IMG/VR virus record: IMGVR_UViG_2541047727_000009
Origin: a virus
Taxonomy: Duplodnaviria > Heunggongvirae > Uroviricota > Caudoviricetes > Peduoviridae
Reading direction: 5' to 3' (one strand)
DNA length: 31,660 bases
This document shows positions 21,859-25,881 of the stretch, in pieces. The translations under genes were made by a program, and so were the position numbers. How positions within the stretch are numbered: position 1 is the stretch's first letter; each line of letters starts with the position of its first letter. The notes beneath the pieces were generated by a model. The model was not told the DNA's origin. It did no database searches and saw only the letters and a program-made list of their open reading frames with translations.

Positions 21859-21915
21859 CGCCCGCTTCATGGGGCGGTTTTAATGCAGTTGCACGAACAA
21901 TCCAGATTCGCGCCA

Positions 21916-21939
21916 GCTCTGACAATATACTGTCAGAGC
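21916..21939. repeat. perfect 9-bp inverted repeat GCTCTGACA-N6-TGTCAGAGC next to cos
   Basis: Read directly from sequence; no flanking T-run, so not a canonical terminator. Confidence 0.5.
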
Positions 21940-22533
21940 AAGCACGTCTGACGCATGCAAAAAAATGCATCTTTTGTATGCAATGCAGAAATCAAACAAA
22001 TTTGAGTATAAATTAACGATGAGCCCTATGATTTTTAACTTCATCCCTAGCAGTTAACAGCAAATTAAAAGTCTTTATCTGCCTGATACTGCCCTGAACA
22101 GTAGTAACAACGATACTCAACATCACCATCATCCATTGGCCAAATGCTCATTTCGCTGCTGGGAGCCTGCGCACCACAACAATCGCAAGCAACATCAATA
22201 TCATCACTATCTTCATTCTGACAAAAAGTGCATTTGTAACCCGTAGAAGACTCATCAGAGGGAATCATTGTGTCGTTAGAACACTCAGGACATTCATAAA
22301 CTTTCCAATCGACCAATTCATAAAATTTATGCCTAACCCCATAAAAAGCTTCAGCCTCTCTTTCTTCAACTTCTTTCTTGGCTTCAGAGAGCCTATGAGA
22401 GTATTCATCAGCTAAAGTTTGAAATATCTGTAAGTTATCTGCACCGACTTCATCTTCAAGATTAAAAAGATCGAAGATATCAATAAACTCAGCTACCCCC
22501 CGGACTAGGCGTCCAATACACAAGCGCGCGTCT

Positions 22534-22537
22534 TTAG
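22534..22537. repeat. IS5 target-site duplication TTAG (left copy; right copy at 23733-23736)
   Basis: Identical 4-bp TTAG directly flanks both IS5 termini; fits the IS5 YTAR target preference. Confidence 0.7.
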
Positions 22538-23732
22538 GGAAGGTGCGAATAAGCGGGGAAATTCTTCTCGGCTGACTCAGTCATTTCATTTCTTCATGTT
22601 TGAGCCGATTTTTTCTCCCGTAAATGCCTTGAATCAGCCTATTTAGACCGTTTCTTCGCCATTTAAGGCGTTATCCCCAGTTTTTAGTGAGATCTCTCCC
22701 ACTGACGTATCATTTGGTCCGCCCGAAACAGGTTGGCCAGCGTGAATAACATCGCCAGTTGGTTATCGTTTTTCAGCAACCCCTTGTATCTGGCTTTCAC
22801 GAAGCCGAACTGTCGCTTGATGATGCGAAATGGGTGCTCCACCTTGGCCCGGATGCTGGCTTTCATGGATTCGATGTTGATGGCCGTTTTGTTCTTGCGT
22901 GGATGCTGTTTCAAGGTTCTTACCTTGCCGGGGCGCTCGGCGATCAGCCAGTCCACATCCACCTCGGCCAGCTCCTCGCGCTGTGGCGCCCCTTGGTAGC
23001 CGGCATCGGCTGAGACAAATTGCTCCTCTCCATGCAGCAGATTACCCAGCTGATTGAGGTCATGCTCGTTGGCCGCGGTGGTGACCAGGCTGTGGGTCAG
23101 GCCACTCTTGGCATCGACACCAATGTGGGCCTTCATGCCAAAGTGCCACTGATTGCCTTTCTTGGTCTGATGCATCTCCGGATCGCGTTGCTGCTCTTTG
23201 TTCTTGGTCGAGCTGGGTGCCTCAATGATGGTGGCATCGACCAAGGTGCCTTGAGTCATCATGACGCCTGCTTCGGCCAGCCAGCGATTGATGGTCTTGA
23301 ACAATTGGCGGGCCAGTTGATGCTGCTCCAGCAGGTGGCGGAAATTCATGATGGTGGTGCGGTCAGGCAAGGCGCTATCCAGGGATAACCGGGCAAACAG
23401 ACGCATGGAGGCGATTTCGTACAGAGCATCTTCCATCGCGCCATCGCTCAGGTTGTACCAATGCTGCATGCAGTGAATGCGTAGCATGGTTTCCAGCGGA
23501 TAAGGTCGCCGGCCATTACCAGCCTTGGGGTAAAACGGCTCGATGACTTCCACCATGTTTTGCCATGGCAGAATCTGCTCCATGCGGGACAAGAAAATCT
23601 CTTTTCTGGTCTGACGGCGCTTACTGCTGAATTCACTGTCGGCGAAGGTAAGTTGATGACTCATGATGAACCCTGTTCCATGGCTCCAGATGACAAACAT
23701 GATCTCATATCAGGGACTTGTTCGCACCTTCC
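22538..23732 (-). mobile_element. complete IS5 insertion sequence (1195 bp)
   Basis: Terminal inverted repeats GGAAGGTGCGAATAAG (22538-22553) and the reverse complement of GGAAGGTGCGAACAAG (23717-23732); encodes an InsH-type transposase; length 1195 bp matches IS5. Confidence 0.9.
22684..23664 (-). CDS. insH: IS5 transposase InsH, 326 aa
   Basis: Product [35 protein letters not shown]... recognised as IS5 InsH; ATG at 23664. Confidence 0.9.
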
Positions 23733-24264
23733 TTAGGAGTAAGTCTGAATTGATAATGCTCAATATCATTTCTTAAATTCTTTATCCAAGCTATATCATT
23801 ACAAAAATCAATATCTACAAAATCAACCCCAGTTATGCCACATTTCTCACACTTAGCAAAGTTTAGTGCCTGATCTAAGGTTATCGTATATGGCCTAGAT
23901 TTCCCTTCAATGAACCTTCCTAAATCAACGCCATCCTCGATAATTTTATTATATGCGTCTAAAAGACTGATTGATTCTCGCTTTGCTCTTGTAGCTATTT
24001 GTTTATAGCAATCGGAATACAGTAAATTTTCATCTACTGTAACAATATATAACTTCAACACCAGCTCAAGAAAATGTGACAAATGCAAGATAGCAAATTT
24101 ATATTGCCGCAATTCTCCTCTCTGCCCTAACTCATACTTTGCTAAAGCTTCATTAAAACTATCAATAGCATTCTCTTGTAAATCCAGTTGATATTCCATT
24201 ACATCACCTAAAAATTTCATATTTATATGAGTGCAGAAAACCATTCAGCACTCATTGCTTATAA

Positions 24265-24996
24265 TCAATTATCTAATATTGATACAACCTCTCCCGTTCG
24301 TATGTCGACGCGCGCAGCTATAGTCTGCTTAACCACTCCACCATAAGCATTAGTACCGCGAAACGTAGTTTTCACAATAGCGTACGGGTCTTTATTCAAA
24401 ACCAGATGATATACCGTTGACACATGTTTATAAGATGAATCATCGTTCATATTATCTTTAATTAGTTTTTCCAATGGACGATAAGAACCATCCCAACCAC
24501 TAAAATTACTCTGAAATGTATCAAGATTGATTTTATTGTTTAGTGAATTCGGGTCATTTTCATAATCATTAAAGCACCACCCAAGAACATCACCGAGTTT
24601 CAACTCATCATCTTTGGTAAATGTATACTCACTCATGCAGGCATAAAACGCATCTGACGCGGTGGCTGGAACTTCCTTAAAATCAATGTAACTATTCACA
24701 ATATCGTGTCGTGTTTTCTTTGACTCGTTCCGATATTCCTTGAGTGTTTTTTCCCCATATTCGAATGTTTTTTGGACTTTGTGTTCTGCAACGGTTGATG
24801 TTTCAGTTTTATCAACTGGCTGGCTTTTTTCTGTTGGATAGAGTATTGAACCAATTATGCTCAATACAAAACCTCCTCCGAGATAAACCGCACTTGCACG
24901 TTTGCGGTTTGGCATTCGCACCAGTGATGGCTTGATTAACCCGATGAAGAAAGCAACGAAAAAAGCGAGTGATAGAAAAGCGATTATAGTATCCAT
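24265..24996 (-). CDS. hypothetical membrane-anchored protein (two N-terminal TM helices plus ~180-aa hydrophilic domain), 243 aa from internal ATG
   Basis: ATG at 24996 preceded by AGGA; hydrophobic stretches IIAFLSLAFFVAFFIGLI and VYLGGGFVLSIIGSILY; stop lies 65 nt upstream of the HEPN-like gene start, same strand; AT-rich. Confidence 0.65.
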   Translation of the reverse strand: MDTIIAFLSLAFFVAFFIGLIKPSLVRMPNRKRASAVYLGGGFVLSIIGSILYPTEKSQPVDKTETSTVAEHKVQKTFEYGEKTLKEYRNESKKTRHDIVNSYIDFKEVPATASDAFYACMSEYTFTKDDELKLGDVLGWCFNDYENDPNSLNNKINLDTFQSNFSGWDGSYRPLEKLIKDNMNDDSSYKHVSTVYHLVLNKDPYAIVKTTFRGTNAYGGVVKQTIAARVDIRTGEVVSILDN

Positions 24997-25425
24997 AGCT
25001 ATCCTTTTTGCATCATCCACATAAAAAATCGACCTCATGTTAGCAACAGGATGCTTACTTTTGAATATTTGTAAGTTGTTAGCTCTCCAACCTAACTCCT
25101 TTCAACCGTTAAAAACCGGCACCAACGCAGTAAAAATATGTCTGTCAACTAACGCCTCGCTTCGCTCGTTGTTCAACCCCGCCAGCCCTGAAAACAAGTT
25201 TCACGACTGGCGGCGTTCTCTATCGTCTGCGTGGTGGTGGCGCAACTCTGGACTGACCGATATAGTTAAGCCGCCCGTAATTATCCCGGACTATTTCGGC
25301 ACACCCGACCAGCTCATCGGGCGTCAGATTTTCGTTGACCATAATCCGCTGTAAACGCTGAACAATAGCCATCAGCCTGATATTTTTAGTTTTATGGTGC
25401 GGTATCTCGCTTGGTATTCTGTGCA

Positions 25426-25881
25426 TTATCCAAGCCACCCGTTTTGCTGTGCACGCTCCATCTGTTCATCTGAATAGTTCCATGCTCCATCCGTGGCAAC
25501 CATTGCCCCGCCAGACATCCCCGTCTCTGGTTCATACATAACAGCAAGGCCGAGCTGATGCATAATTTCATGATTAATTCTGAATACCAGACCACGCTCA
25601 CTAAGTTCTTTCCAGTTCACAATCTCATATGCGCCTGTATTAAGCAGCTCAATACTTAGCAAGACATAATCTTCCAGCCAGTCTGACAGGTCAGTAACAT
25701 CTGTTATCCGGGCTTCAACCTTTCGCCCCGTATACACACCCTGCACCCATTCATGCAAAATCAACGTGTCCCCGTGCTCATAATTACGGTCATTTTTCCT
25801 AAACTCTGCGCGTTTCTTTCCTTCCAGCACAAGGTCGAAATATTTTGCGTGCAGCTTTACCTCGTGAATTTTTGCCATCAT
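25426..25881 (-). CDS. ASCH/PUA-like (DUF3850-like) protein with C-terminal HExxH motif, 151 aa, translationally coupled to gene A
   Basis: ATG at 25881 overlaps the A stop (ATGATG) with GGAG 8 nt upstream; N-terminus KIHEVKLHAKYFDLVLEGKKRAEFRKNDRNYEHGDTLILHEW resembles ASCH-fold domains as I remember them; C-terminal INHEIMHQLGL carries HExxH. Confidence 0.65.
   Translation of the reverse strand: MMAKIHEVKLHAKYFDLVLEGKKRAEFRKNDRNYEHGDTLILHEWVQGVYTGRKVEARITDVTDLSDWLEDYVLLSIELLNTGAYEIVNWKELSERGLVFRINHEIMHQLGLAVMYEPETGMSGGAMVATDGAWNYSDEQMERAQQNGWLG

Follow-up and report, generated by a model that had tools for sequence, protein, structure and literature searches.

The window, a stretch of 31,660 nucleotides (IMG/VR record IMGVR_UViG_2541047727_000009), is a P2-like prophage. 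Our subject is the accessory slot of the P2 family between replication gene A and cos/gene Q, here positions 21859-25878, and in particular a gene in this slot that encodes a HEPN-zinc-ribbon protein and is split by the insertion sequence IS5. On the left flank of the hotspot, the terminase gene P (18833-20635, reading rightward) is followed by the portal gene Q (20635-21669, plus strand), an open reading frame (ORF) whose equivalent in Escherichia coli GN04171 is annotated 'phage portal protein'. The 19-mer GGCGAGGCGGGGAAAGCAC, which we take to be the P2-type cohesive end of cos, has an exact match at 21840-21858 on the minus strand, and the linear record of the P2-like phage OU784549 has as its first base position 21859 of the window. 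On the right flank, gene A (25878-28163, minus strand) corresponds to the 'replication endonuclease' of GN04171, the coordinates being mapped with an offset of 19898. The cos match and the gene A stop at 25878 bear out the original prediction, made from this DNA alone, that acquired genes lie in the A-to-cos slot. The interval is a known accessory hotspot of the P2 family; the same slot, gpA to gpQ/cos, was catalogued as a P2 hotspot by Rousset et al. 2022 (PMC9122126).

The slot genes are on the minus strand throughout and encode, in order from gene A, a DUF3850/ASCH protein of 150 amino acids (aa), a 68-aa ORF, a 243-aa membrane protein and the protein of the IS5-broken gene. None of the slot ORFs has an ATPase or TOPRIM domain or a PADLOC match other than PDC-S64, in agreement with the expected absence of Tin and Old; no direct alignment to Tin or Old was made. 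Overall, the slot is a hotspot with two backbone genes and two single-gene cassettes, in which the HEPN protein would probably be a stand-alone abortive-infection ribonuclease (RNase), very probably inactivated here by IS5, and the membrane protein probably a separate component of the envelope.

Backbone genes and exchangeable cassettes

The gene adjoining gene A (25426-25878, minus strand), the start of which overlaps the gene A stop, encodes a DUF3850/ASCH and DUF7415 protein (Pfam PF12961, 1e-17; PF24187, 2e-14; PF04266, 2e-10) with the motif HEIMH. It is followed by the 68-aa ORF (25220-25426, minus strand), which matches phrog_11386 (E = 1e-37) and has annotated counterparts in GN04171 and in four further E. 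coli prophages. From 25147 to past gene A, the DNA is 97-98% identical to P2-like phages with wholly different cargo, among them Wphi and OU784549, the cargo of the latter containing a methylase. The Wphi match spans gp91, gp92 and A, where gp91 ('similar to P2 orf91') and gp92 are the annotated names of the two small genes. Moreover, the third-gene protein of the P2 old-tin clone of Rousset et al. matches DUF3850, and its N-terminal ~75 residues are those of the window ASCH protein, bar a few substitutions. Because of the identity to phages with other cargo, the Wphi annotation and the P2 clone protein, the ASCH/HExxH protein is by sequence homology the orf91 homologue and belongs to the P2 backbone, rather than standing in place of orf91 as originally supposed.

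That this protein is instead part of an acquired defence cargo is very improbable. The gene does lie inside the slot, and the DUF7415 part holds the HExxH-like motif HEIMH; against this, the DNA is nearly identical in phages with other cargo, the homology runs past the ASCH gene to 25147, and the N-terminal domain is common to P2's own orf91. The P2 orf91 product resembles the window protein over the DUF3850 domain only and diverges beyond it. To judge from these sequences, the cargo junction of reference P2 appears to lie inside orf91, removing the DUF7415 part with HEIMH. The orf91-type and gp92-type genes should therefore be annotated as P2 backbone, with the hotspot boundary placed after both.

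The guanine-plus-cytosine (GC) content agrees with this assignment. The values are 0.333 and 0.41 for the two halves of the HEPN gene and 0.385 for the membrane gene, compared to 0.463 for the orf91-type gene, 0.493 for the 68-aa ORF, 0.54-0.56 for A, P and Q, and 0.53 for IS5, consistent with a cargo status of the former two genes and a backbone status of the orf91-type and gp92-type genes. The AT-rich cargo of the original prediction is thus confirmed for the membrane and HEPN genes (0.333-0.41) but not for the ASCH gene with its intermediate value.

The cargo proper spans 21894-25146. It begins at about 25146, not at 25881; the gp92-like ORF had been overlooked. Comparison with two relatives divides the cargo further. 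Homology to the MS7163 prophage runs from gene A as far as 24264, where the membrane gene has its stop codon, and sets in again at 21893 near cos; MS7163 has the same membrane gene, but an unrelated 260-aa gene in place of the HEPN gene. With the homology to OU784549 ending at 25147 and that to MS7163 at 24264, cassette 1 (24264-25146) comprises the membrane gene and its upstream region, whereas cassette 2 (21894-24263), bounded by the MS7163 breakpoints at 21893 and 24264, comprises the HEPN-zinc-ribbon gene and its flanks and carries IS5. The cargo is therefore two separately exchangeable, single-gene, low-GC cassettes and not one island, and the supposed island of three proteins resolves into backbone plus two independent cassettes. 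These swaps against MS7163 and OU784549 substantiate the horizontal exchange that had been suspected.

A conserved junction element of 65-79 base pairs (bp) with an imperfect hairpin (CCGCCAG TCG TGAAA CTTGT TTTCA GGG CTGGCGG) sits at the backbone/cargo boundary in the window (25147-25225, minus strand) and in loci L001, L002 and L003 of our collection. Further copies are found downstream of the membrane gene in Klebsiella oxytoca (L013, 5747-5815) and in two E. coli prophages (L020, 3250-3314; L022, 3248-3295), so that in L020 and L022 direct repeats flank the membrane gene. The element may serve as an anchor for recombination or as a hairpin with a regulatory role; an Rfam scan of the slot, including the element, gave no family at threshold. 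Past the HEPN gene stop, at 21900-21990 (minus strand), there is a hairpin with a perfect 9-bp stem, GCTCTGACA gtatat TGTCAGAGC, in addition to a TGCAT/ATGCA stem followed by a T run; by sequence, these look like cassette terminators.

Elsewhere in the window, a second stretch of low GC (0.42-0.45; 6603-7263 and 7000-8000) covers the 3' end of a 909-aa tail-fibre ORF (7267-9996) and a 175-aa ORF (6736-7263). The gap between the latter and a 396-aa putative sheath ORF (5413-6603) is only ~130 bp, and this other accessory position of P2 looks empty in the window, the tail-fibre and sheath identities being judged by size and position only.

The IS5-split HEPN-zinc-ribbon gene

The element that splits the gene (22538-23732, minus strand) is 1195 bp long, has the inverted ends GGAAGGTGCGAACAAG and CTTATTCGCACCTTCC, encodes a DDE transposase (Pfam DDE_Tnp_1, 5e-35, and DUF772) and is bordered by TTAG target duplications at 22534-22537 and 23733-23736. 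It thus has the length of ~1.2 kb, the terminal inverted repeats, the 4-bp target duplication and the DDE transposase of an IS5, and is 99.6-99.7% identical to the annotated IS5 in records of phage P1 and the lambda-related phage 434. The 5' fragment of the gene (23733-24198, minus strand) holds codons 1-156 with HEPN helices 1-3, including R143-N-D-I-E-H148, and the 3' fragment (22065-22537, minus strand) holds codons 157-311 and the stop, encoding a helical linker and two Cys4 zinc ribbons. As the split halves gave weak or partial matches only in Pfam, NCBIfam and PADLOC scans, the gene was first rebuilt by deleting IS5 and one TTAG copy, which yields an ORF of 311 aa. The rebuilt protein has exactly the sequence of WP_004099450.1 from E. 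coli GN04171, in which the gene is intact and the prophage has an uninterrupted locus with 99.9% identity to the window; the unbroken allele that the original prediction had hoped to find by alignment thus exists. In the GN04171 record NZ_CP095520.1, the intact HEPN gene occupies 4714404-4715339 and the membrane gene 4713607-4714338. The start MEYQ agrees with the RefSeq entry WP_004099450.1, and AGGTGA lies 5 nucleotides before the ATG.

The insertion site follows codon 156, eight residues beyond H148, where the predicted final helix of the HEPN core begins, and therefore falls between the catalytic helix and the fourth core helix. According to the ORF prediction, the product of the 5' fragment terminates after eight IS5-encoded residues. 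The gene is very probably inactive in the window, to judge by its sequence. About 2% of the pseudogenes in P2-like prophages resemble defence genes (preprint 10.64898/2026.02.27.708500), and according to the same preprint, disruption of a defence-type gene by IS5 in a P2 hotspot is reportedly uncommon.

The protein begins with a HEPN domain of the DUF3644 type, from which a long helical linker leads to two Cys4 zinc ribbons at the C-terminus. In its AlphaFold2 model, which has a predicted local distance difference test score of 87.4, the N-terminal domain is helical, and the remainder includes a helix of 33 residues and six short strands. The HEPN motif RNDIEH occupies residues 143-148, and its conserved form is R-N-x-I-E-H: among 35 homologues, in the numbering of member P0001, N159, I161, E162 and H163 never vary, and the conservation of R158 is at least 90%. 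Further conserved N-terminal motifs are ENAxDS and KFxxxHxxHxxE. The all-α four-helix core and the Rx4-6H motif, with which the third core helix ends, are those of the HEPN superfamily. The ribbon cysteines are residues 237/240/257/260 and 272/275/298/301; seven of them (C237, C240, C257, C260, C272, C275 and C298) are listed as invariant in the 35 homologues, and C301, not listed as invariant, is aligned in every member of the 311-aa type. A HEPN-like/zinc-ribbon gene split by IS5, as first read, is thus supported by RNDIEH, eight cysteines and the flanking TTAG copies.

A search of 5.8 billion proteins returned 128 relatives from Gamma- and Betaproteobacteria, none with a name, and a profile search of 1.84 billion cluster representatives gave 894 hits at E <= 1e-3 and 61 at E <= 1e-30. 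In PADLOC, the rebuilt protein matches the PDC-S64 model PDLC05059 (E = 3.6e-17, 60.4 bits) in three stretches, whereas family homologues score 52.5-95.7 bits, with E-values up to 1e-27 to 1e-28; PADLOC-DB applies no curated cut-off to this match. The rebuilt protein has no match to Pfam PF12358 (DUF3644) at E <= 1, some shorter homologues have precomputed PF12358 hits, and the PADLOC DUF3644 model gives 9e-5 for member P0097. A search of the sequences of solved structures with the family profile yielded no meaningful match; the top-scoring one was a zinc finger at E = 0.024. The predicted structures of the window protein and of the defence protein HEC-08 both match the HepT toxin SO_3166 (PDB 5yep).

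The literature search for PDC-S64 and the WP accessions found no dedicated study, and the supplements of Vassallo 2022 contain neither the membrane protein nor the HEPN protein. In Rousset 2022 (PMC9122126), however, the HEPN protein is entry #126, 'FdhE', of Table S5B with 21 loci, and both the intact arrangement and the exact IS5-interrupted allele are present in Table S5A; Table S2 of cloned and tested systems has no match to either cargo protein. The window gene is therefore one more single-protein HEPN defence gene of a kind already known, here very probably inactivated, and not a new system. Altogether, the original prediction read the sequence correctly, but its boundary was over-extended and its novelty overstated, as slot and gene family were already catalogued. 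Its statement that the cargo proteins are unrecognised as defence does not hold for the HEPN protein, given PDC-S64, the homology to HEC-08 and Table S5; a defence role of the split gene, as proposed, is plausible.

Outside P2/186-like phages, HEPN homologues occur alone, and in five of the six places examined they lie beside recognised defence genes: a Lamassu-like Cap4-nuclease/SMC set in Pseudomonas, AIPR in Vibrio, Mrr in Acinetobacter, PIN_12 and an Eco57I-type methylase in Klebsiella, and retron Ec48 in a Serratia P2-like prophage. In Pseudomonas sp. TUM22785 (L004, 1539-5936), the homologue directly follows a Cap4-type nuclease, a 161-aa protein and an SMC-like ATPase in a Lamassu-like arrangement, and the 43-bp gap before it might reflect embedding in that system. 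In Serratia inhibens (L023, 1197-5915), it stands beside the reverse transcriptase and effector of retron Ec48, near tail-fibre and sheath genes, which is a different P2-type cargo position.

The membrane gene and its partners

The 243-aa protein (24265-24996, minus strand) has two transmembrane helices, as had been read from the sequence, corresponding to the hydrophobic segments 3-21 and 34-52 with a positively charged loop (KPSLVRMPNRKRAS) between them. Past the helices, a linker predicted with low confidence leads to a confidently predicted C-terminal domain, which comprises a putative periplasmic HdeA-like and an NTF2-like domain. The protein belongs to phrog_3403 and has no family match in Pfam, NCBIfam or PADLOC, and a fold search of a viral structure library gave no informative match. 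Given the positively charged inter-helix loop and two invariant cysteines, the C-terminal domain is predicted to face the periplasm. Weak fold similarity suggests that the protein probably acts alone at the envelope, for instance in superinfection exclusion or by neutralising an incoming lytic or periplasmic attack enzyme.

It is possible, though somewhat unlikely, that the membrane protein is not a defence protein at all and serves lysogenic conversion or envelope stress, as a tethered HdeA-like chaperone, or is an orphan immunity protein against a type VI amidase. The two invariant cysteines would suit a periplasmic disulfide, PADLOC yields no match, and the gene occurs alone at a prophage end in Photorhabdus. 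By contrast, the slot is rich in phage-exclusion genes, and the family is confined to P2/186-like prophages of Enterobacterales. The protein is common (84 of 5426 complete E. coli genomes, compared to a single one for the HEPN gene; 210 loci of Rousset 2022, PMC9122126, where it is the separate single-gene entry #12, '2 TM', of Table S5B) and may be the more useful lead.

What follows the membrane gene varies widely. Among 80 IMG/VR phage contigs that carry it, the next gene encodes a 220-aa protein in 23, a 260-aa protein in 17 and the HEPN protein in 7, the remainder having rarer genes or no convincing partner ORF. In other E. coli prophages, a membrane protein 94-97% identical to that of the window is followed by a 218-aa, 224-aa or 429-aa gene, and in a Klebsiella oxytoca 186-like prophage by a gene for a DUF2971/PDC-S31 protein. 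Five partner proteins compared directly by BLASTP are mutually unrelated, and each of the three large partner classes follows the membrane allele of the E. coli type as well as that of the Klebsiella/Enterobacter type. As varied, unrelated partners recur behind both allele types, the membrane gene is resident in the lineage and lies immediately upstream of the point where genes are actually swapped. The commonest partner (L058 and 22 other IMG/VR loci; L020, 3316-3972), of ~220 aa, has a hydrophobic N-terminus and no Pfam or PADLOC match, so that two uncharacterised membrane proteins often stand in tandem in the slot.

These counts bear on whether the membrane and HEPN proteins form one two-gene system, for example with the RNase as sensor and the membrane protein as effector, or the reverse. 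The two genes are on the same strand, separated in the window by a 66-bp spacer in which no promoter-like site was found; the same two genes are also found together in 186-like prophages, of Enterobacter among others, with DNA identity of 75-78% throughout, and the pair is present in all eight phage contigs that have a HEPN gene of at least 78% identity. Nevertheless, we regard a two-gene system as unlikely. HEPN homologues of at most 64% identity lack the membrane gene in 10/10 phage contigs and 6/6 genomic contexts; the HEPN gene is a minority partner behind the membrane gene; the alleles of the membrane protein cluster according to phage lineage and not according to partner; a single gene suffices for HEC-08; and the list of Rousset 2022 keeps the two as separate systems. 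The operon of a dedicated pair assumed in the original prediction is thus contradicted by the 7/80 membrane-gene contigs with HEPN and by the 10/18 phage contigs with a HEPN homologue but no membrane gene. A promoter and terminator scan performed near chance level and does not settle whether the cargo genes are co-transcribed.

A broader variant, in which the membrane protein is the common envelope-facing component of a modular two-part immunity platform with interchangeable partners and the 65-bp junction element as exchange site, appears improbable. If true, the platform would have the HEPN-zinc-ribbon RNase, the 260-aa protein, the 220-aa membrane protein and the DUF2971 protein as partners.

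Proposed mechanism and comparison with known systems

The closest experimentally characterized relative is HEC-08, a validated single-gene anti-phage system that reduces plaquing and loses defence upon the H128A mutation (10.1101/2024.01.29.577857). We recovered its sequence, WP_001313577.1 of E. coli ECOR52, from an E. coli genome; it matches the HEC-08, DUF3644 (3e-71) and PDC-S64 (3e-8) models. Aligned by hhalign, the profile of HEC-08 homologues and that of the window family match with a probability of 96.4% (E = 1.1e-9) over 241 columns, which take in RNxxxH and the first two ribbons; the homologue profile is needed, as the HEC-08 sequence alone reaches a probability of only 22.6% against the window family profile. 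The short family member P0107 scores 3e-3 against the HEC-08 hidden Markov model (HMM). Both proteins have an N-terminal DUF3644-type HEPN domain with Rx4H followed by Cys4 zinc ribbons, but HEC-08 differs in having four Cys4 units rather than two (16 invariant ribbon cysteines in its homologues, compared to 8 in the window protein), in its length of 366 aa against 311 aa, in the lack of any pairwise BLASTP similarity, and in residing in chromosomal islands and restriction loci instead of the P2 slot. Membership in HEC-08 proper was rejected on the absence of an HMM match, the two ribbons in place of four and the lack of pairwise similarity. As judged from the profiles, the window protein represents a separate, related family, a distant homologue of HEC-08 with the same architecture.

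A second reference is RAZR (PD-T7-4), the best-studied among proteins of such a design, in which the zinc-finger domain sets specificity and which becomes active when it assembles around phage proteins of ring shape (Zhang et al., Nature 2026, PMC13017515). RAZR likewise joins a Cys4 zinc ribbon and a divergent HEPN RNase in one protein, is non-toxic until a phage protein triggers it, and acts by abortive infection, and so serves by analogy as a mechanistic model. However, its zinc finger is N-terminal, the reverse of the order seen here, and its HEPN domain is of the DUF4145 type with R146...H154. The window protein has no match to PADLOC PD-T7-4 or to Pfam DUF4145, and its domain order is not that of RAZR.

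Based on the fold, the catalytic motif, the ribbon cysteines, the homology to HEC-08 and the defence-type neighbourhood, we propose that the intact HEPN-zinc-ribbon protein would act as a stand-alone, trigger-activated abortive-infection RNase. The zinc-ribbon module, by analogy, may recognise a phage-made protein or nucleic acid. Binding of this trigger would assemble the HEPN domains into an active dimer or oligomer, which in turn would cleave RNA and halt translation.

Alternatively, the protein could target plasmids or other mobile elements, or stabilise the prophage as a toxin-like module, which we consider rather unlikely. Acinetobacter Ishtar proteins (Ishtar1/2, XZW63086.1 and MGQ1310977.1), which combine an N-terminal HEPN domain (DUF3644 or DUF4145) with a C-terminal β-rich domain and are also reported in P4 satellites and integrons, clear plasmid RP4 (preprint 10.64898/2026.07.06.735840), and the Klebsiella homologue lies amid conjugation-type genes (TraG-D_C, DtrJ-like). 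On the other hand, HEC-08, the nearest tested relative, lowers phage plaquing, the neighbours of the family are mostly anti-phage genes, and no antitoxin-like partner accompanies the gene. The Ishtar primers match none of the collected loci, and the PADLOC lists of the Ishtar strains contain neither PDC-S64 nor HEC-08.

Several points weigh against the stand-alone abortive-infection RNase. Its experimental support comes from the distant relative HEC-08 only, by analogy, and for the sensing role of the ribbons the model is RAZR, which has the opposite domain order and a different HEPN family. The window protein itself falls below both Pfam PF12358 and the PADLOC HEC-08 model, the HMM of which gives no match at E <= 1. 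In addition, all HEPN relatives of at least 78% identity (8/8 phage contigs, GN04171, L026 and L027) follow the membrane gene at a distance of 64-70 bp, and the spacer holds no convincing promoter. A functional link to the membrane gene in this sub-clade is conceivable but unlikely; a cassette dropped behind a resident gene would look like this as well.

Like PDC-S64, the window protein is a candidate for a single-gene system, is of similar length, and carries HEPN at the N-terminus and cysteine clusters at the C-terminus. PDC systems are 'guilt-by-embedding' candidates, the genes of which are embedded in BREX, DISARM and type I restriction loci (Payne et al., 10.1101/2024.01.29.577857); PDC-S64 thus differs in being defined from such embedding and not from prophage hotspots, and the match of the window protein to it is only moderate (60 bits, three stretches). 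As to single-gene action of the PDC-S64 type, the gene stands alone in 6/6 contexts outside P2/186-like phages, while close relatives always lie behind the membrane gene. The EC042_2821/DUF3644 family of HEPN proteins, fused to zinc ribbons among other domains and tied to restriction loci (Anantharaman et al. 2013, PMC3710099), likewise combines HEPN with zinc ribbons, and some members of the window family have PF12358 hits; the window protein differs in scoring below PF12358 and in having no winged helix-turn-helix or restriction-endonuclease domain. The tin/old locus of P2 occupies the same slot and has orf91 in common with the window, but differs in its Tin and Old genes, which appear to be absent here. 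Altogether, the HEPN-zinc-ribbon family connects the candidate PDC-S64 to the validated HEC-08 within a phage cargo slot, and the intact GN04171 allele WP_004099450.1 provides a handle for testing it.

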